This document shows positions 32,787 through 39,169 of a stretch of DNA of 64,000 nt, piece after piece. The DNA lies in NCBI GenBank assembly GCA_964443495.1, contig CAYUCS010000001.1:469496-533495 (forward strand), in the 5' to 3' direction. The notes beneath the pieces are model-generated. The model was not told the origin of the DNA, ran no database searches, and was given only the letters and a program-made list of their open reading frames with translations. The translations under genes were made by a program, and so were the position numbers. Position 1 is the stretch's first letter. The number at the start of each line of letters is the position of its first letter. This stretch comes from an uncultured Gammaproteobacteria bacterium (GTDB taxonomy: Bacteria; Patescibacteriota; Patescibacteriia; Patescibacteriales; GWE2-39-37).

Positions 32787-33087
32787 AGGTTATCCGGGCT
32801 TTGCCCAAAAAAAAAGAACGGCCGCGTTCGGGCCATTCAAGTATGCAAACCTTAGCATAAATATCTAAAATTGTCAACCCCGGGGTGTCAAGAGTTGCCA
32901 TTGTTCGCCTTGGATCGCATCGACTGTGAGACTTACAATGATTTCATTTTTATACATGGAATGGACAGAAAACTTGCCTTGGTATATGGATTTTTTTTGA
33001 AATGAAAACTTTTATTTGATAAAATTATGACAAGATATATATTTTAGAAAATCCTGTCATTTTGTCAGTCATTAATTTAACAAAAAT

Positions 33088-33291
33088 ATGCCATCACTTG
33101 AACGATTTGTTGAAATAACGCTAATTACTTCATGCCTACTTTTTATCATTCCATTTATTTTTATATTTAAAAGCATAATAAAAAAAGACATATCCAGAGT
33201 TGGCAAATTTTTTTTATTGGTGATTTTAACTATTACATCTTTCGTCGCAACAGTCTTGGTTGTTGGATGGGTTTTGCATTTTTGGCTATAG
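33088..33291 (+). CDS. Possible small membrane protein (67 aa) in an AT-rich stretch
   Basis: It has two hydrophobic helices and a terminator hairpin follows. There is no SD, and AT-rich sequence makes chance ORFs likely. Confidence 0.3.
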   Translation: MPSLERFVEITLITSCLLFIIPFIFIFKSIIKKDISRVGKFFLLVILTITSFVATVLVVGWVLHFWL

Positions 33292-33324
33292 ACTTTGTTC
33301 AAGTCTATAAATTGGCTATATACT

Positions 33325-33354
33325 AAAAATCCACACATGAAAGTGTGGATTTTT
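33325..33354. terminator. Bidirectional hairpin terminator
   Basis: AAAAATCCACAC (33325-33336) pairs with GTGTGGATTTTT (33343-33354). Confidence 0.65.
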
Positions 33355-33360
33355 AGTATA

Positions 33361-33384
33361 TTTGTAGCGCTACGGGGAATCGAA
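33361..33384 (-). repeat. Duplicated 3' end of tRNA-Glu (T-loop to 3' trailer), att-like
   Basis: The 24-nt sequence TTTGTAGCGCTACGGGGAATCGAA is identical to 33473-33496. The adjoining sequence cannot form the T-stem or the rest of a tRNA. Confidence 0.85.
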
Positions 33385-33432
33385 GGGGCGGAAGCCCCAC
33401 AACGGCTCCGAGGTTCTCAGGCCTCATAACCA

Positions 33433-33468: not shown

Positions 33469-33476
33469 CATTTTTG

Positions 33477-33548
33477 TAGCGCTACGGGGAATCGAACCCC
33501 GGTTACCAGGATGAGAACCTGATGTCCTAACCACTAGACGATAGCGCC
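33477..33548 (-). tRNA. tRNA-Glu (anticodon CUC)
   Basis: I folded the cloverleaf by hand on the minus strand. The acceptor is GGCGCTA/TAGCGCT, the D arm is GTCT-AGTGGTTA-GGAC and the anticodon arm is TCAGG-TTCTCAT-CCTGG. The variable loop is 4 nt, the T arm is CGGGG-TTCGATT-CCCCG and the discriminator is A. CCA is not encoded. Confidence 0.85.
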
Positions 33549-33628: not shown

Positions 33629-34564
33629 TTATGTCAAAACCTGATGGATTATTTCCGGGTAGCCCCTCAAGAATTCGCTGGAGCTGACTTCGGATTTGCC
33701 CTCAAGCTGCAGACGCTCGACAATCAGGGCATCGATGCCGCACTGGATCGCCAAGTGGCCGTGATCGATGAAGACCTCGCCGTGGCGGTACTGTTCGATG
33801 CGGTGCGGTTCGTGCTCTACTTTGGTAATCTTAAGGATCTGGCCTTGCCAGGTAGTCCAGGTGCCAGGCCAGGGTGTCATTGCCCGGACTTGCCTTTCCA
33901 GGCGATGCGCGGAATGAGACCAGTCGATGCGGCCGTCTTCTTTGGTGAGCGTTTTGACGTAACTGGCGTGCTCATTATCTTGCGGGTGCAGCTTGAGCTC
34001 GCCCGAGATATAGTGCTTCAGGACTTCAGGCAAGATGCCTGCGCCTAAAGGAGCGAGTTTTTCAGCCAAGGTCAGCGGGGTTTCTTCGGGGTCGAGCTCG
34101 ACTTTGGCCTGGAAGATGATCGGGCCGGTGTCGAGCGACTTGTCCATCTTCATTATGGTGACGCCGCTCTCGCGGTCGCCGTGCAGTATCGGGGCTTGCA
34201 AGACCGCGGCACCGCGGTATTTGGGCAAGAGGGAAGCGTGGATATTGATACAGCCGTGTCGAGGCAGGTTGAGCACGGATTCCGGTATGATCTGGGCATA
34301 AGCGACGACCACGATGACATCCGGCTTCAATCCGGCAAGTTCGGGCAGGATGTCGCTGATCTTTTCCGGCTGAAAGACCGGAATGCCGGCCTTCAAAGCA
34401 GCTTCCTTGACCGGTGTCGGGGTGATAATCTGCTTGCGCCCGATGGGCCGGTCCGGTTGGCTGACAACTCCGACCACGTCAAAATTACGGTCCTTGAGCA
34501 GGGCTTCTAGCGTCGGAACGCTGAACGACGGGGTGCCGATAAATATTGTCCTGATTCGGTTCAT
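33629..34564 (-). CDS. fmt: Methionyl-tRNA formyltransferase
   Basis: The sequence includes RTIFIGTPSFSVPTLEAL, INIHASLLPKYRGAAVLQAPI and the C-terminal domain. I use the ATG at 34564, 4 nt after the def stop; the tracked ORF extends to 34606. Confidence 0.9.
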   Translation of the reverse strand: MNRIRTIFIGTPSFSVPTLEALLKDRNFDVVGVVSQPDRPIGRKQIITPTPVKEAALKAGIPVFQPEKISDILPELAGLKPDVIVVVAYAQIIPESVLNLPRHGCINIHASLLPKYRGAAVLQAPILHGDRESGVTIMKMDKSLDTGPIIFQAKVELDPEETPLTLAEKLAPLGAGILPEVLKHYISGELKLHPQDNEHASYVKTLTKEDGRIDWSHSAHRLERQVRAMTPWPGTWTTWQGQILKITKVEHEPHRIEQYRHGEVFIDHGHLAIQCGIDALIVERLQLEGKSEVSSSEFLRGYPEIIHQVLT

Positions 34565-34568
34565 GAAG

Positions 34569-35051
34569 TTATTTTTTCTTTTTCGCGGTTGATTTTTTCG
34601 GGTCAAGATAGTCGATGAACAGCACCCCGTCGAGATGGTCGATCTCGTGCTGCAGCCCGCGAGCGATCAGGCCCTCGGCCTCGATGATGCCTTGCTTGTT
34701 CAACTCGGTCGTGAATTTGCAGCAGACTTTCTTGTGGCGGCTGATCTTGTGGAAGACGTCCGGCAGGGAAAGGCAGCCTTCCTCCTGCGTTTCACGGGCC
34801 CAAGATCGCTTGGTGATTTTGGGATTGATCAGGCAGATCGGCCCCTGGTCGGTATTGATCGTGATGAGGCGGATATTGTGGCCGACTTGAGGGGCAGCCA
34901 AGCCGACGCCATCCTTCTTGATCATGGTGTGCTTCATGTCGGCAATAAGCTTCTTGAGTTCCTTGGAGCTCAAGTCCTTGATTTCGACCTCGGCCGACAT
35001 CTTGCGCAGCCGCGGGTCGGGATGAGTGAGTATATTCAATAAATCAGGCAT
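34569..35051 (-). CDS. def: Peptide deformylase
   Basis: The three deformylase motifs are GLAAPQVG, EGCLSLP and QHEIDHLDG. Confidence 0.92.
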   Translation of the reverse strand: MPDLLNILTHPDPRLRKMSAEVEIKDLSSKELKKLIADMKHTMIKKDGVGLAAPQVGHNIRLITINTDQGPICLINPKITKRSWARETQEEGCLSLPDVFHKISRHKKVCCKFTTELNKQGIIEAEGLIARGLQHEIDHLDGVLFIDYLDPKKSTAKKKK

Positions 35052-35076
35052 ATTTTTGTGATTATTTAGCTAGTTT

Positions 35077-35105
35077 ATTTAATCATTAAATGGCGTTTTT
35101 GTCAA
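35077..35105 (-). promoter_or_regulatory. Candidate promoter of def-fmt
   Basis: On the minus strand TTGACA lies at 35105-35100, then a 17-nt spacer, then TTAAAT at 35082-35077. The -35 context TTGACAAAAACGCC resembles two other promoters in the window. The -10 is weak. Confidence 0.35.
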
Positions 35106-35148
35106 CTTAACAGGCGCTGGCCGGCCTGTTATACTTAAGCATATCTTT

Positions 35149-35463
35149 ATGACAGACGTAAAATTTGACGAAGGTTTCCAGTCCTTCGGCGACATCTTTA
35201 AGAATAGGAACAAGATTCCGGCGAAAAAGCCACCGGCTTACGAGTGGCAGGATTTGGCTTTGCAGATTATCAAGGAGTTGGGCGTGCCCAATTTCAAGCG
35301 CAACTCGGTCTTCAAGGTTTGCAAGGAATACAACAAAGTAATCGTGATGCAGGCGCTTAACGACACTAAAGAGCTTTGCCAGACCGGAGAGAAGTGGAAA
35401 TATTTCTTCAAGATAATCGACAAGAAGCCCGACGCGCCAGATGAAAAAAAACAGCCCGAGTAG
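35149..35463 (+). CDS. Hypothetical protein (104 aa)
   Basis: This is a clean ORF whose stop lies inside a terminator hairpin. I recognised no motif. Confidence 0.5.
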   Translation: MTDVKFDEGFQSFGDIFKNRNKIPAKKPPAYEWQDLALQIIKELGVPNFKRNSVFKVCKEYNKVIVMQALNDTKELCQTGEKWKYFFKIIDKKPDAPDEKKQPE

Positions 35464-35533: not shown

Positions 35534-35962
35534 CTATTTTTTCATCCCCCCTTGCTTCGTGGCGAAGCCATCATATGTTTCTTCGTCATTTTTCCAAAGC
35601 ACCTCTAAGCTTTCGACATCAACCACCTCCGCCACCGCACTCAAAGGGTAATACTCGCCATCGACACGCAAATGGCCGCTTTCAATCACGGACAAATCAT
35701 CGATTTGCGCATATATTTTCCTCTTGATTCCGCTTGGCATATATACTTCTACATCGTATGCCTCGCCTTCTTTAAAGATGCCCATGGCCTCTGCTTCATC
35801 CAACTGTTTTTTCTTGATCATGAATTCCTTCCCGGCAGCAAATCCGCGCTCCAGGGTTGCGGCCCTGTCATCGCTCATTCGCTTTTGATCTTCGGTCAAG
35901 ATGTTTTCCTCGACATTACGTATTTGCTCAGATGTTCCTTGAGCACCGAATTTTTCTTTCAT
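35534..35962 (-). CDS. Hypothetical protein (142 aa)
   Basis: The ORF has plausible composition. I recognised no motif. Confidence 0.45.
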   Translation of the reverse strand: MKEKFGAQGTSEQIRNVEENILTEDQKRMSDDRAATLERGFAAGKEFMIKKKQLDEAEAMGIFKEGEAYDVEVYMPSGIKRKIYAQIDDLSVIESGHLRVDGEYYPLSAVAEVVDVESLEVLWKNDEETYDGFATKQGGMKK

Positions 35963-36143: not shown

Positions 36144-36572
36144 CTATCGTGGTTGAGTTGGCAATGCCCCGTAGCTGTTATGGTAGATTTTGCCTGGCTT
36201 CGGATGTGTGCATTTCAGTGAGGTCCATATGTCGTCTATGCGCAGGTTGGTGCTTTCCACTAAATTGTACTGATAGACGATTCGTTCGACACTGTGGACC
36301 GTTAAATTGCTACCGAGTTGTCTGCCTTTGGGCCAAGACACCCAAAGCTTACCGTCAGGCGCCAGGTGTGGCTTCAATGCTTTGAGCCGGGAGTGCAATT
36401 CAGCTTCGGTGATTACGAAACAGTTTATATAATCAAACATGCCTTTCAGCTCATCACTGACCTGCGCCTCCGGTGCGCCAATGGCCGCTATGGCCTCGGC
36501 TGGAGCATTCGAATAATATGTCCTCATGCCTGGCTTCAGGCCCATTTTTTGCCAGATCGGTCTTTGTAGCAT
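36144..36572 (-). CDS. Hypothetical protein, possibly DUF3052-like
   Basis: As I recall, the N-terminal pattern MGLKPGMRTYYSNAP...WVSWPK resembles the DUF3052 family. This was not verified. Confidence 0.4.
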   Translation of the reverse strand: MLQRPIWQKMGLKPGMRTYYSNAPAEAIAAIGAPEAQVSDELKGMFDYINCFVITEAELHSRLKALKPHLAPDGKLWVSWPKGRQLGSNLTVHSVERIVYQYNLVESTNLRIDDIWTSLKCTHPKPGKIYHNSYGALPTQPR

Positions 36573-36740
36573 AGACGTAATTAATTGCGAGAAAAGAGGT
36601 ATGAATTGGGGTCTGAAAAAATTGACCCCCTGAATATTAAAATGCCAATTTATTGAGCCGTATATACAGTGTTTTCGGATGAGGTTTAAAATTCTTTTTC
36701 GTTATTTTGTATTCAATCTGGGCGAACTAAATTTATAGAA

Positions 36741-37628
36741 TCATAAGCTGGAGATCGACCAGCCAGATGGAGTTTTTATTAATTGAACGCTTGAACCAAT
36801 ATTGGTGCCATCAGCCTGCTTGCTTATTGCGTTAAATTCTGCAAATTCATCGCCAATCGAATCTGCCGTTGAATTTTTCAATGATTGTGCTAGGTCATTC
36901 CTGATACTTTGATTGGAAAATAATAATGTGTATTCTTCCTCCTTGTAGACATCATTCATATCAAAAATAATATATCTTAAAGCCTTTTTTACATCGTTAG
37001 CAGCAAGGGCATCGGCGCAACCCATAAGAGCTTCGGCTGGATTATTGGAATAAATTCTAGTTGCAGATATGCGGTCACCGAATTCTTTTGTCGTTTTTTC
37101 AAAATCATCGGATATTAAAAATATTTTCCATGAATCATGATTTTGCGAATTGGCTTCTCCCGGTGCGCCTTCTTGAATATTTACTGCCAAAATCATCCCC
37201 TTTTTATTATTTATTTCAAAAATATATTCATCAGGATTTGAGCCTCCTGTATTATATGGTTTTATTGTCTCTAGCGCATTATTAATATCATTTAATTTTT
37301 TATCCGAAGAAAACCAATCATTTATAATGACTTTATTCTTTTCTAAATATAGAGGATTAAATGCTAGCAAGAAACCATTTTTATCCTTGTTCTTAATGGA
37401 GAGTTTTACATATTCAATTAATTCATTTGAAGTCGGAAAATTCGCATTATTTTCTGCATTATTTTTTTCACTGTATGATTTTTTGCTTGTATCAGCAACA
37501 GATGTATCTTCAGCAACAATAATATTTGGCCTTGTTTTGTACATTGTAAATGCCATATAAAATGAGCCTATTGCAATAGCAATAATTACTGCTAAGCCTA
37601 AAATTATGTATAATATTTTTTTATTCAT
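36741..37628 (-). CDS. Hypothetical membrane-anchored protein encoded by very AT-rich DNA
   Basis: It has an N-terminal TM helix (ILYIILGLAVIIAIAIGSFYMAF) and an Asn/Lys/Ile-rich composition. I use the ATG at 37628; the tracked TTG start is at 37640. Confidence 0.55.
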   Translation of the reverse strand: MNKKILYIILGLAVIIAIAIGSFYMAFTMYKTRPNIIVAEDTSVADTSKKSYSEKNNAENNANFPTSNELIEYVKLSIKNKDKNGFLLAFNPLYLEKNKVIINDWFSSDKKLNDINNALETIKPYNTGGSNPDEYIFEINNKKGMILAVNIQEGAPGEANSQNHDSWKIFLISDDFEKTTKEFGDRISATRIYSNNPAEALMGCADALAANDVKKALRYIIFDMNDVYKEEEYTLLFSNQSIRNDLAQSLKNSTADSIGDEFAEFNAISKQADGTNIGSSVQLIKTPSGWSISSL

Positions 37629-37855
37629 AGCATTGATCAATTTGTATTTAAAATATTAGTTTTACCCGGGTTAAGTTTGTATTAATTGAGTCAAAGATTT
37701 TTTAATATTTCGCCCAACGTATCCAAATATGAGAAGTTTTTGTCCGCTTCCTTATTATATATCAACAGAGAAAAAGGGCAAAAATTTGGGTTGAGAAAAA
37801 TTTGCTTTCCTTATTAATATAAATTGTGCAAATTTTTTGAACCTCATATTCGGTG

Positions 37856-37922
37856 TTGTCGGATGTATCTAAAAACAAATTATTCCTTATTTGAGCCCTG
37901 TTTTTTTCAAGCCCTTTTGAAA
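37856..37922. repeat. Left arm of an imperfect inverted repeat
   Basis: TTGTCGGAtgTATCTAAAAACAAATT ... TTTTTTCAAgCCCTTTTGAAA pairs with the reverse complement of 38263-38320. The outer block is 26 nt with 2 mismatches and the inner block is 21 nt with 1 mismatch. Confidence 0.8.
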
Positions 37923-37932
37923 CTTTGTGTCA

Positions 37933-37960
37933 TTGACATTTTTGGATTTCCTGCTATATT
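37933..37960 (+). promoter_or_regulatory. Sigma70-type promoter of the 59-aa mini-gene
   Basis: TTGACA lies at 37933-37938, then a 16-nt spacer, then TATATT at 37955-37960. Confidence 0.55.
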
Positions 37961-38013
37961 GATGTTAAATCAAGCGCCAAATTGTACCTAAAATCAACCG
38001 AGGAGGATATGTC

Positions 38014-38193
38014 ATGACAAAAAAAAGAGCAGTGACTAAAGAGAAGTCGGACACCAGTCAGCCCCAGAAAATAGTCGGCGTAGGCGCAGAGGCAACGTTC
38101 CCTTACAACGAACGTCAATGGGAAGAACGGCAAAGACTGGAAAGAGAAAGCGGTCCAAGACCATTTTCCGAGTTTGATCCTCAAACTTGGTAA
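38014..38193 (+). CDS. Small protein (59 aa) missing from the ORF track
   Basis: AGGAGGA sits 6 nt upstream of the ATG at 38014. My hand translation is MTKKRAVTKEKSDTSQPQKIVGVGAEATFPYNERQWEERQRLERESGPRPFSEFDPQTW, ending at TAA 38191-38193. The gene has its own promoter and terminator. Confidence 0.55.
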   Translation: MTKKRAVTKEKSDTSQPQKIVGVGAEATFPYNERQWEERQRLERESGPRPFSEFDPQTW

Positions 38194-38227
38194 CCCTTAG
38201 GCAGTCAATAGTCACATCTGGCTAACG

Positions 38228-38255
38228 CGGGACTTATCCATAGTTCCGTTTTTTT
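38228..38255 (+). terminator. Intrinsic terminator of the mini-gene
   Basis: CGGGAC (38228-38233) pairs with GTTCCG (38243-38248) with one G-U pair, followed by seven T at 38249-38255. Confidence 0.6.
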
Positions 38256-38262
38256 ATTTGTA

Positions 38263-38320
38263 TTTCAAAAGGGTTTGAAAAAATATTAATAAAGAATTTG
38301 TTTTTAGATATTTCCGACAA
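38263..38320. repeat. Right arm of the imperfect inverted repeat
   Basis: Its reverse complement reads TTGTCGGAaaTATCTAAAAACAAATT ... TTTTTTCAAaCCCTTTTGAAA, matching 37856-37922. Confidence 0.8.
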
Positions 38321-38377
38321 CTCGTTATTATGCGAAATGATTTCGCATTTCGTGCTTGAATGCGTGTGTTATGCGAA

Positions 38378-39169
38378 CTAGAGTTTGAAATTCATGGTGA
38401 GGTAGCCGACGCCGAAGGGGGCTTCGTAGGCCAGGCGTTCCGGCTCGTGTTTGATGCCGTCGAGGACGCCTAAGAGTATGAGAATGGATTTGAGGCCGCA
38501 TTCATTGGCTTCGCGGATAAGGAGGTGGTTCATGTTCAAGAGCTCCTCAGGCTGGTTTTTGGCGATGCTTTCGACCACTTTCTGGTCGAATTTAGCCGCC
38601 TTTGGCGAGTAGCCGGCCGGCGCTTCCTTGGTCAGGCGATGCGAAAGGTCGCCTGAAGCGATAATAGCGATGCGGTTCTGGCTGTAGATGAGTTCGCGCT
38701 TCAAGAGTTGGCCGAAATGGAAGTGAGCTTCGTAATCTAAGCCTGAGTAGTATAACGGAATGACCCTGAATTGCGGCGCGCTTGGCGGCATCAAGAGGAA
38801 AAGGGGGATGGCGGAGCCGTAGTCGAGGGTGGTCTGACTGATCAGCTGCAGCGGCGCCTTGGTCTCGAGGTTTTCGCGGATGCGGTGCGCCAGGCCGACG
38901 TCGCCCTGGACGGTGAATTTGGTAGCGAAATCGCCGAAGTGTTCGAAATTCGCCTGGAACTCCGGGCTGAGATTCATGGAAAAAGTCTTGCCCTGAACCA
39001 GGCCGTGCGGAGAAAGGATGACAATCGTGTCCGCCTTGCTGGAGTAGAGGTTTTCTTTAAGCTTCTTGTAGGCATCATCAGTTGCTTTGAGCCGCCCGGC
39101 ATTTTCCTTGCCGATGGCAGGAATTAATAAGGGAGGGTGGGGAACGATCGCCGCAAAGACGATAGACAT
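38378..39169 (-). CDS. LigB / class III extradiol-dioxygenase-fold protein (Memo-like)
   Basis: The N-terminus VFAAIVPHPPLLIP...IVILSPHG and a later SGDLSH motif are typical of this fold family. The substrate is unknown. Confidence 0.5.
   Translation of the reverse strand: MSIVFAAIVPHPPLLIPAIGKENAGRLKATDDAYKKLKENLYSSKADTIVILSPHGLVQGKTFSMNLSPEFQANFEHFGDFATKFTVQGDVGLAHRIRENLETKAPLQLISQTTLDYGSAIPLFLLMPPSAPQFRVIPLYYSGLDYEAHFHFGQLLKRELIYSQNRIAIIASGDLSHRLTKEAPAGYSPKAAKFDQKVVESIAKNQPEELLNMNHLLIREANECGLKSILILLGVLDGIKHEPERLAYEAPFGVGYLTMNFKL

Follow-up and report, generated by a model that had tools for sequence, protein, structure and literature searches.

Which kind of element places a gene of 59 codons between two long inverted arms, as is found at 37856-38320 of the 64-kb window analysed here (the whole 64,000-nucleotide stretch of contig CAYUCS010000001.1)? 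The sequence-only reading of this DNA described a two-block inverted repeat around a promoter, a Shine–Dalgarno sequence, a 59-codon open reading frame (ORF) and a terminator, and each of these parts is found where it had been placed. Two interpretations were offered for the whole: a mobile unit, either cassette-like or resembling a miniature inverted-repeat transposable element (MITE), and an invertible segment. Comparison with related genomes indicates that the element is probably one cassette in an integron-like array of a Moranbacteria-type genome of the candidate phyla radiation (CPR), in a model that joins cassette, array and recombinase. The system seems to be run by a Xer-type recombinase and not by a true integron integrase; since this recombinase has no IntI-specific domain, the system is termed integron-like here, not an integron.

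Shared arms and a folded repeat between cassettes

Both blocks of the arms are found only in these two places within the window, and the chance matches expected in shuffled sequences are 0.00 and 0.02 for the two blocks. A 9-nt difference in the linker between the blocks accounts for the unequal lengths of the left (68 nt) and right (59 nt) arms. A scan with the inner block, performed on one genome per species, detected paired, inverted matches in several Moranbacteria and Parcubacteria genomes. At least ten unrelated cargo genes are bracketed by arms of ~68 nt in other genomes of these two groups. The cargo differs between such arms at the comparison loci L014, L015, L016, L023, L002, L019, L012, L020 and L007, and comprises small transmembrane proteins as well as proteins of 63, 75, 112 and 287 aa.

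Homology between cassettes ends a few bases within the inner blocks. The left arm is kept at 84-95% in L015, L023, L002, L007, L012, L014 and L067, and the right arm at 86-92% in 13 other loci. The promoter adjoins the left arm in seven of the fully read cassettes, and a TTGACA-type -35 box lies equally far from the inner block in L001, L015, L016 and L067. Copies in genomes of 36-45% GC share ~90% identity with the window element, whose own GC content is 28-40%; the GC content across the unit and its 299-aa neighbour is 27-41%, compared with ~55% in the host genome. Viral contigs were scanned with the inner block and also with the pattern of the repeat; each scan gave one weak match, and neither match contained a full repeat.

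A side observation concerns the contigs of L012, L020 and L007, which are binned as Gammaproteobacteria or Bdellovibrionales metagenome-assembled genomes (MAGs) and carry CPR-type repeats and cassettes at 84-92% identity. These contigs are probably mis-binned.

The gene carried by the window unit has relatives in two further settings. A word-indexed search returned a single homologue, P0001, from a Candidatus Moranbacteria MAG (78% identity), and an exhaustive HMMER search added P0124 (61 aa, 45% identity). All three proteins share the motifs KSxxxxPQK and FPYN and a C-terminal PRxFSEFDPQTW, in which FSEFDPQTW is identical. The ratio of non-synonymous to synonymous substitution rates (dN/dS) between the window gene and P0001 is 0.46 overall, with four synonymous and three non-synonymous changes in codons 23-59, the conserved C-terminal 37. 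With two homologues that conserve the motifs and contain no stop codons, the gene call made from the sequence stands, and the 59-aa protein is the product of a real, conserved gene. The three genes have identical arms, promoter position and orientation in different neighbourhoods: a LigB-like gene on one side in the window, gyrA at L001 and the middle of an array of repeats at L067. By this comparison, the gene appears to move between neighbourhoods. The proposal of a cassette-like mobile unit with a small gene was thus right in spirit, given one gene in three neighbourhoods and at least ten cargoes between such arms, and its MITE-like variant is weighed below.

The left arm is not an isolated repeat. 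Conservation extends ~160 nt leftward of the arm as first delimited, and the arm is the outer end of a structured repeat of ~190 nt (Table 1), its outer block doubling as the 3' arm of this repeat. The first part of the consensus reads ATTTC(G/A)-nnnn-AAC-GT-n5-ATAT-(GAG/CTG/GCG)-AAG ... AATTTGGG ... followed by a variable stem-loop, and the second part A(A/G)CC-(CTC/CAG/CGC)-ATAT-n5'-TG-TT-nnnn-GATGT. The fold is a three-way junction bounded by AAC...GTT and by a second paired arm, ..ATATGCGAAG / CCGCATAT.... The AAC and GTT boxes are invariant and paired, ~155 nt apart, but the adjoining four bases fit the RYYY/RRRY of attC (RYYYAAC ... GTTRRRY) only loosely; the fold is branched and its stem extends outside the boxes.

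Evidence for the fold comes from the alignment of 25 repeats, for which RNAalifold returned the three-way junction with 31 pairs, 20 of them with compensatory changes. Pairing was found in 92.3% of cells, against 76.6% in column shuffles (none of 500 as high) and 36-50% when the partners were slid. G·T pairs (91) prevail over A·C mismatches (16), so that the folding strand would be the + strand of the window, which is antisense to the array ORFs and hence the bottom strand of the array. One of the G·T pairs is present in all 25 repeats and another in 23 of the 25. The DNA fold of a single sequence yields the identical junction; its folding energy is ordinary (z = -1.4 on one strand and -1.2 on the other), and the support for the fold is therefore covariation and not stability. 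A search of Rfam 15, which has no attC family, found only a tRNA at gathering score in the window and nothing better than E = 2 in 37600-38400.

A profile search indicated that the copies of the repeat form arrays, always on one strand per locus. Six or more copies are present at L043, five at L032, three to five at L023 and three and a half at L009/L064; the window holds the two listed in Table 1, one of them decayed. The array ORFs lie on the strand opposite the repeats, each ORF being followed by a repeat, at L023, L009/L064, L043, L032, L063 and in the window. Furthermore, repeats also come after cassettes without long arms.

Read along the array genes, the recombination unit starts with (G)TTnnnnGAAAT and ends with ACATCnnnnAAC, followed by the folded core and then a G; in this orientation, the right arm is the 5' end of the cassette. 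The crossover points (AA|C) would lie at 38320/38321 and 37717/37718. The four bases that adjoin GTT at one end of a cassette complement the four that adjoin AAC at its other end, and in the window cassette the tetranucleotides GTCG (37858-37861) and CGAC (38315-38318) match at 4/4. This complementarity is 4/4 in 10 of the 26 cassettes and 3/4 in 4 of the 26, compared with 6.5% and 13% in shuffles. Full matches include the window, all three L064 cassettes, three L043 cassettes and the first cassettes of L060, L063 and L070; in L060, L063, L064, L070 and the window, the rule is followed by the first cassette beside the attI-like site described below. The two tetranucleotides within one repeat are not complementary.

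Moreover, the sub-family of the core stays with the upstream cassette and the downstream neighbours differ, the core accompanying the cassette type in the window, L015, L023, L002, L007, L020 and L067. Complementary ends, together with a core that stays with the upstream cassette, are the pattern of G|TT exchange in integrons, in which a cassette derives its 5' end from its own site (R'/R'' complementarity).

In the proposed mechanism, the recombinase would join a folded repeat to the attI-like site, or to a second repeat, by exchange of a single strand at AA|C (G|TT on the opposite strand), and cassettes would be excised as circles and then reinserted, as in integrons. The arms predicted to be contacted by the recombinase are ATTTCnnnnAA / ATATGCGAA. 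Integration would cut well inside the long palindrome, next to AAC/GTT, and not at the hairpin base. In the sub-family of the window unit (cassette 1), pairing runs ~68 bp beyond the AAC/GTT boxes, so that a cut inside the hairpin would leave an arm of ~68 nt at the cassette 5' end and the complementary arm with the core at the 3' end. These two pieces left by integration would be the inverted repeat that was noticed at the outset. The arms had seemed unlike attC because the AAC/GTT boxes faced the wrong way, a difficulty that was solved once the left arm was recognized as the end of a larger palindrome.

Recombinase and attI-like site in related genomes

At L009, a 272-aa tyrosine recombinase is encoded divergently from its array. 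Homologues of this recombinase were fetched with their flanks, their surroundings not being known beforehand, and repeats were found 0.3-1.2 kb upstream, on the divergent side, at six of six independent loci (L060, L061/62, L063, L064-66, L070 and L071). All six carry conserved attI-like motifs and display the integron-like architecture of a divergent recombinase, a co-oriented array and an adjoining attachment site.

Conservation extends over the 135 nt that precede the recombinase start codon, which read ATTTCnnnnAAC|TCGTTT-ATAT(G/A)CGAAC-TT ... GTTAT(G/A)CGAAC-TTTTAGTATAAT. The array starts in this segment, at a double-stranded site, ATTTCnnnnAAC|TCGTTT-ATATGCGAAC, directly upstream of the recombinase gene. 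Its junction can be read as an inverted pair of 11-bp arms that flank 7 bp, AGTTCGCATAT-AAACGAG-TTAGGCGAAAT, symmetric at 8/11 positions. The second copy of TTATGCGAAC sits over the recombinase promoter (-35/-10 region), a position that suggests autoregulation. The motif (A/T)TATGCGAA recurs in every folded repeat, as its inner paired arm, and the folded repeat would rebuild, as a hairpin, the two-arm core that the attI-like site offers as a duplex.

With the integron-integrase profile TIGR02249, the recombinase reaches 212.5 bits (cut-off 265), in two pieces, and it passes the XerA model NF040815 with 224.5 bits (cut-off 220). Against solved relatives, the best score is obtained with VchIntIA (160 bits), followed by XerA (151) and XerD (87), and the protein is colinear with Pyrococcus XerA. 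In the alignment to VchIntIA (2A3V), residues 184-195 of the recombinase lie opposite IntI residues 186-240, and the IntI-specific domain was not found. The recombinase is 71-89% identical over more than 100 clusters and is encoded near core genes such as lepA and def-fmt. By the strict-sense criterion that PMC9668308 credits to Messier and Roy (2001), an integron has an integrase with the IntI-specific additional domain around patch III.

The array cargo of related genomes includes restriction-modification, CBASS (cyclic-oligonucleotide-based antiphage signalling system), GmrSD, HicAB, GNAT and SnoaL genes, a content typical of cassette arrays. Accessory genes between the repeats of the six loci encode RE_ApaLI with a methyltransferase and CBASS, HicAB, GmrSD and a beta-lactamase-fold protein. 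As read from their gene content, the arrays appear to act as defence-gene hotspots.

Several details of these arrays were recorded separately. Defence cargo lies at L060 5311-9006, L063 6632-8469, L061 7578-8007 and L043 9277-10230, and consists of an ApaLI-type restriction-modification pair with CBASS (SMODS/AGS-C), two GmrSD, HicAB and a Fic-like gene (motif by eye). At L043 444-1277, an IS3-like transposase ORF (by eye), the only transposase encountered at the loci, is located at the edge of the longest array observed and is unrelated to the cassette ends. At L014 6102-6635, a peptide deformylase gene lies between a cassette of the inverted-repeat type and the next structured repeat, as if def were a cassette. 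Many bacteria have more than one deformylase gene, often within mobile genetic elements (2025, PMC12690207).

Known systems and rival explanations

The arrangement shares many traits with sedentary chromosomal integrons and with clusters of attC sites lacking integron integrases (CALIN). A tyrosine recombinase gene is divergent from co-oriented, mostly single-gene cassettes, and a double-stranded attI-like site with repeated recombinase-type motifs adjoins it. At the end of each cassette stands an imperfect palindrome, delimited by AAC...GTT and folding on its bottom strand, and the 5' TTnnnn of the cassette is complementary to the nnnnAA of its own site. The repeats are homogeneous and the cargo unrelated, with abundant defence, toxin–antitoxin and small unknown genes. 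Orphan arrays without a recombinase also occur, and the array of the window corresponds to a CALIN.

However, other traits differ from those of integrons. The recombinase has 12 residues in place of the 55-residue IntI-specific segment of VchIntIA and remains below the integron-integrase cut-off. The site is a three-way junction of ~155-190 nt, whereas canonical attC is a simple hairpin of 57-141 nt. Pairing runs 20-68 bp outside the AAC/GTT boxes, so that integration would leave long inverted repeats around the cassette, and the hosts are CPR bacteria. It is conceivable, at somewhat below an even chance, that these traits define an undescribed integron-like platform, with a Xer-type recombinase without the IntI domain and three-way-junction sites of ~190 nt cut deep in the hairpin, which would be either an independent invention or an intermediate between Xer/dif and integrons. 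A literature search on integrons, attC and cassettes in Patescibacteria, CPR, Moranbacteria and Parcubacteria found no description of such a system, which is absence of evidence only.

Elements that depend on Xer offer a second comparison. Val and colleagues are said to have described, in 2005, that the folded single-stranded attP of the CTX phage is recombined with dif by Xer. As in such integrative mobile elements exploiting Xer (IMEX), a Xer-family recombinase would here act on a forked single-strand hairpin of ~150 nt that mimics a core of two arms and a spacer; unlike them, the units are not phage genomes but many small cassettes with a folded site each, in arrays that adjoin the recombinase gene. 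The pdif modules of Acinetobacter plasmids, reportedly treated by Blackwell and Hall in 2017, are likewise discrete gene modules between inverted recombinase sites, in varied contexts and with a Xer-type recombinase. The pdif sites are plain, double-stranded and 28 bp long, with alternating orientation, in contrast to the large structured repeat found here, with its single orientation and defined array start.

These likenesses lead to the alternative that the recombinase is the ordinary dimer resolvase and the site its dif, at which Xer-exploiting elements pile up without any dedicated capture platform. The match to the XerA model, the colinearity with Pyrococcus XerA, the strong conservation beside lepA and def-fmt and the two-armed attI junction speak for it, and XerS and difSL are also adjacent, and the CTX phage integrates as a folded single strand. 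However, arrays of up to at least six co-oriented single-gene units with their own folded sites are a trait of integrons and not of IMEX or pdif modules, and all these repeats are co-oriented, whereas pdif sites alternate. The alternative is considered unlikely; it departs from the cassette-array reading mostly in the other roles of the recombinase. A non-autonomous transposon of the MITE or mobile insertion cassette type, with terminal inverted repeats GTTGTCGGA..TATCTAAAAACAAAT and a transposase supplied in trans, is quite improbable. It would account for long terminal inverted repeats around variable passengers in many genomes, for the covariation of the two ends of one unit and for a unit without an internal recombinase. 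Yet no target-site duplication is seen (flanks CGGT|GTTG and CAAC|TCGT), none of the ~45 loci encodes a transposase with these ends, the left repeat runs on into a structured repeat that is also present behind cassettes without long arms, and the units form co-oriented arrays that adjoin a conserved attI-like site and a tyrosine recombinase. The MITE reading was given up on these grounds, the arms being best understood as the two halves of a site-specific recombination site.

A structured non-coding RNA, either antisense or a 3'-end element, with regulatory arms and no recombination of DNA, would fit the strong covariation, the invariant G·U pairs and a promoter-like TTGAGA-18-TAATAT inside the repeat, but it matches no Rfam family. 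It would leave unexplained the complementary tetranucleotides across cassettes, the motif that the repeat has in common with the site ahead of the recombinase gene, and the occurrence of one cassette in differing neighbourhoods, and is regarded as highly improbable. The idea of an invertible segment, in which a promoter flips between the arms, draws on their inverted arrangement and on the inner block, which, with its asymmetric 6-bp centre, resembles a small recombinase core site. It is hardly credible, and was dropped: the unit keeps one orientation in the window, L001 and L067, the three genomes that share this cargo, the promoter adjoins the left arm in seven of the fully read cassettes, no invertase appears among the Pfam families listed for the window, and the gene that a flipped promoter would face belongs to a separate cassette.

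Some points weigh against the cassette-array reading itself. The whole model is built on comparative sequence analysis, the window has no recombinase of its own, and the recombinase of the related genomes lacks the IntI-specific domain. This protein is conserved enough that it may be a housekeeping Xer, in which case its adjacency to the arrays would reflect a variable hotspot and not catalysis. The repeat exceeds the size of canonical attC and is branched, and a structured RNA would fit the covariation equally well. The tetranucleotide rule fails in ~12 of the 26 cassettes, some failures being decayed sites or automatic pairing. The cassette model does not account for the inner block, ATTTTTTCAA-GCCCTT-TTGAAAT, whose short inverted arms TTTCAA / TTGAAA (37901-37923 and 38262-38284) flank the 6-bp centre in the shape of a small tyrosine-recombinase core site, unlike the other arms of the system; it may perhaps be just the outer end or an extension of the long hairpin stem.

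If the cassette-array reading is true, its consequences would be several. According to a passage in PMC4792948, integrons are thought to have originated from a Xer-like recombinase that gained an extra helix to handle folded single-stranded sites, and a natural cassette system with a helix-less recombinase would make the question of their origin testable. Cassette capture would be extended to the candidate phyla radiation, with its tiny genomes and poorly known routes of gene gain, and the hypervariable hotspot with restriction-modification, CBASS, GmrSD and toxin–antitoxin genes would be explained. Moreover, the joint signature of sequence and structure would serve for annotating such arrays, including small genes missed by gene callers, such as the 59-aa one.

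The probable orphan array of the window

The segment next to the right arm can be aligned with the 135-nt stretch that precedes the recombinase start codon in L060, L061, L063 and L064, and with L015, which is equally truncated; the motifs of the segment are also present in L070 and L071. Homology runs up to the second motif and breaks off precisely where the LigB-like gene has its stop codon; the recombinase gene that comes next in other genomes is missing at this junction. The remark in the sequence-only reading that no recombinase lies nearby agrees with a tblastn search with the family recombinase, which finds none in the 64 kb, and among the 25 Pfam families listed, of 60 matching in the window, there is no integrase, resolvase or transposase. 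With an attI stump only and no recombinase, the array of the window is an orphan, and it is probably frozen, barring the action of a recombinase encoded at another place in the genome.

A related observation is that in two unrelated genomes (window 38322-38379 and L015 1700-1797) homology is lost at one point, just past the second TTATGCGAAC. This common loss point suggests that the recombinase gene was lost or relocated more than once, perhaps through the action of a recombinase.

Table 1. Coordinates of the cassette, repeat and neighbouring features in the window
Feature	Position	Strand	Details
Cassette 1, recombination unit	37718-38320	- (array orientation)	5' TTGTCGGAAAT ... cargo ... ACATCCGACAAC, folded core, G
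Left arm	37855-37922	+	outer block GTTGTCGGATGTATCTAAAAACAAATT, linker TTCCTTATTTGAGCCCT, inner block TTTTTTCAAGCCCTTTTGAAA
Right arm	38263-38321	+	inner block TTTCAAAAGGGTTTGAAAAAA, linker, AATTTGTTTTTAGATATTTCCGACAAC
Outer arms	37855-37889 / 38287-38321		35 nt, 86% complementary
Inner arms	37902-37922 / 38263-38283		21 nt, 95% complementary
Cargo promoter, sigma-70 type	37933-37960	+	TTGACA-16-TATATT with TG extension
Cargo gene, 59-aa charged protein	38014-38193	+	AGGAGGA Shine–Dalgarno at about 38000-38006
Intrinsic terminator of the cargo gene	38227-38256	+	8-bp stem (hairpin 38227-38249), then T7
Structured repeat 1 (attC-like)	37695-37890	+	~190 nt; nhmmer E = 1e-37
Repeat 1, start	37707-37718		ATTTCGCCCAAC; then GT, ATCCA, AATATGAGAAG to 37736
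Repeat 1, helix P2			AAGTTTTTG...CAAAAATTT
Repeat 1, variable stem-loop P3	37793-37805 / 37828-37838		the two segments pair
Repeat 1, end	37839-37854; 37855-37866		GAACCTCATATTCGGT; GTTGTCGGATGT
Remnant of attI-like site	38322-38379	+	AAC|TCGTTA-TTATGCGAAA ... GTTATGCGAACT
Cassette 2 cargo	36741-37640	-	AT-rich 295-299-aa membrane protein; GC 0.27-0.37 versus ~0.55 in the host
Structured repeat 2, decayed	36533-36706	+	nhmmer E = 3.5e-16; directly downstream of the 299-aa gene
Conserved 104-aa gene	35149-35463	+	far edge of the variable region

The order of the orphan array is the attI stump, cassette 1 and cassette 2 with its decayed repeat, in which the right arm and central stem are retained and the left arm is replaced. 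The leader of cassette 2 opens with the generic cassette 5' end, GTTGGGCGAAATATTAAAAAA, whose reverse complement lies at 37698-37718; a Pfam search of its 299-aa membrane protein gave no match. Two 142-aa ORFs at 36144-36572 and 35534-35962 are perhaps older cassettes without a remaining repeat. The 104-aa gene at the far edge has tblastn matches of 56-59% identity in L002, L004 and L009/L064, at an equal position relative to the arrays.

Within cassette 1, the promoter matches the consensus at 11/12 positions and has the top promoter score in the region, as the terminator has among terminators; the identical hairpin is found in L067. Since the cargo has its own promoter and terminator and is transcribed against the direction of the array, its expression would be independent of an array promoter. 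A Pfam search of the 59-aa protein gave no match, and an exact look-up found it not on record. Three large proteins that matched the query (P0122, P0123 and P0125) were judged spurious, as only 21-27 query residues were aligned in each, in short or repetitive stretches.

Finally, two observations concern the surroundings of the array. The gene order in L064 1-12406 is GluRS-WecG-LigT-96aa gene-cassettes-recombinase-def-fmt; in the window (33629-35463), def-fmt lies beyond the 104-aa gene, inverted, and the recombinase is gone. A second AT-rich stretch of the window (32800-33400, 30-32% GC), in which repeat-profile and block-pattern searches found no copy, lies beside tRNA-Glu (33476-33548) and may be another foreign insertion.

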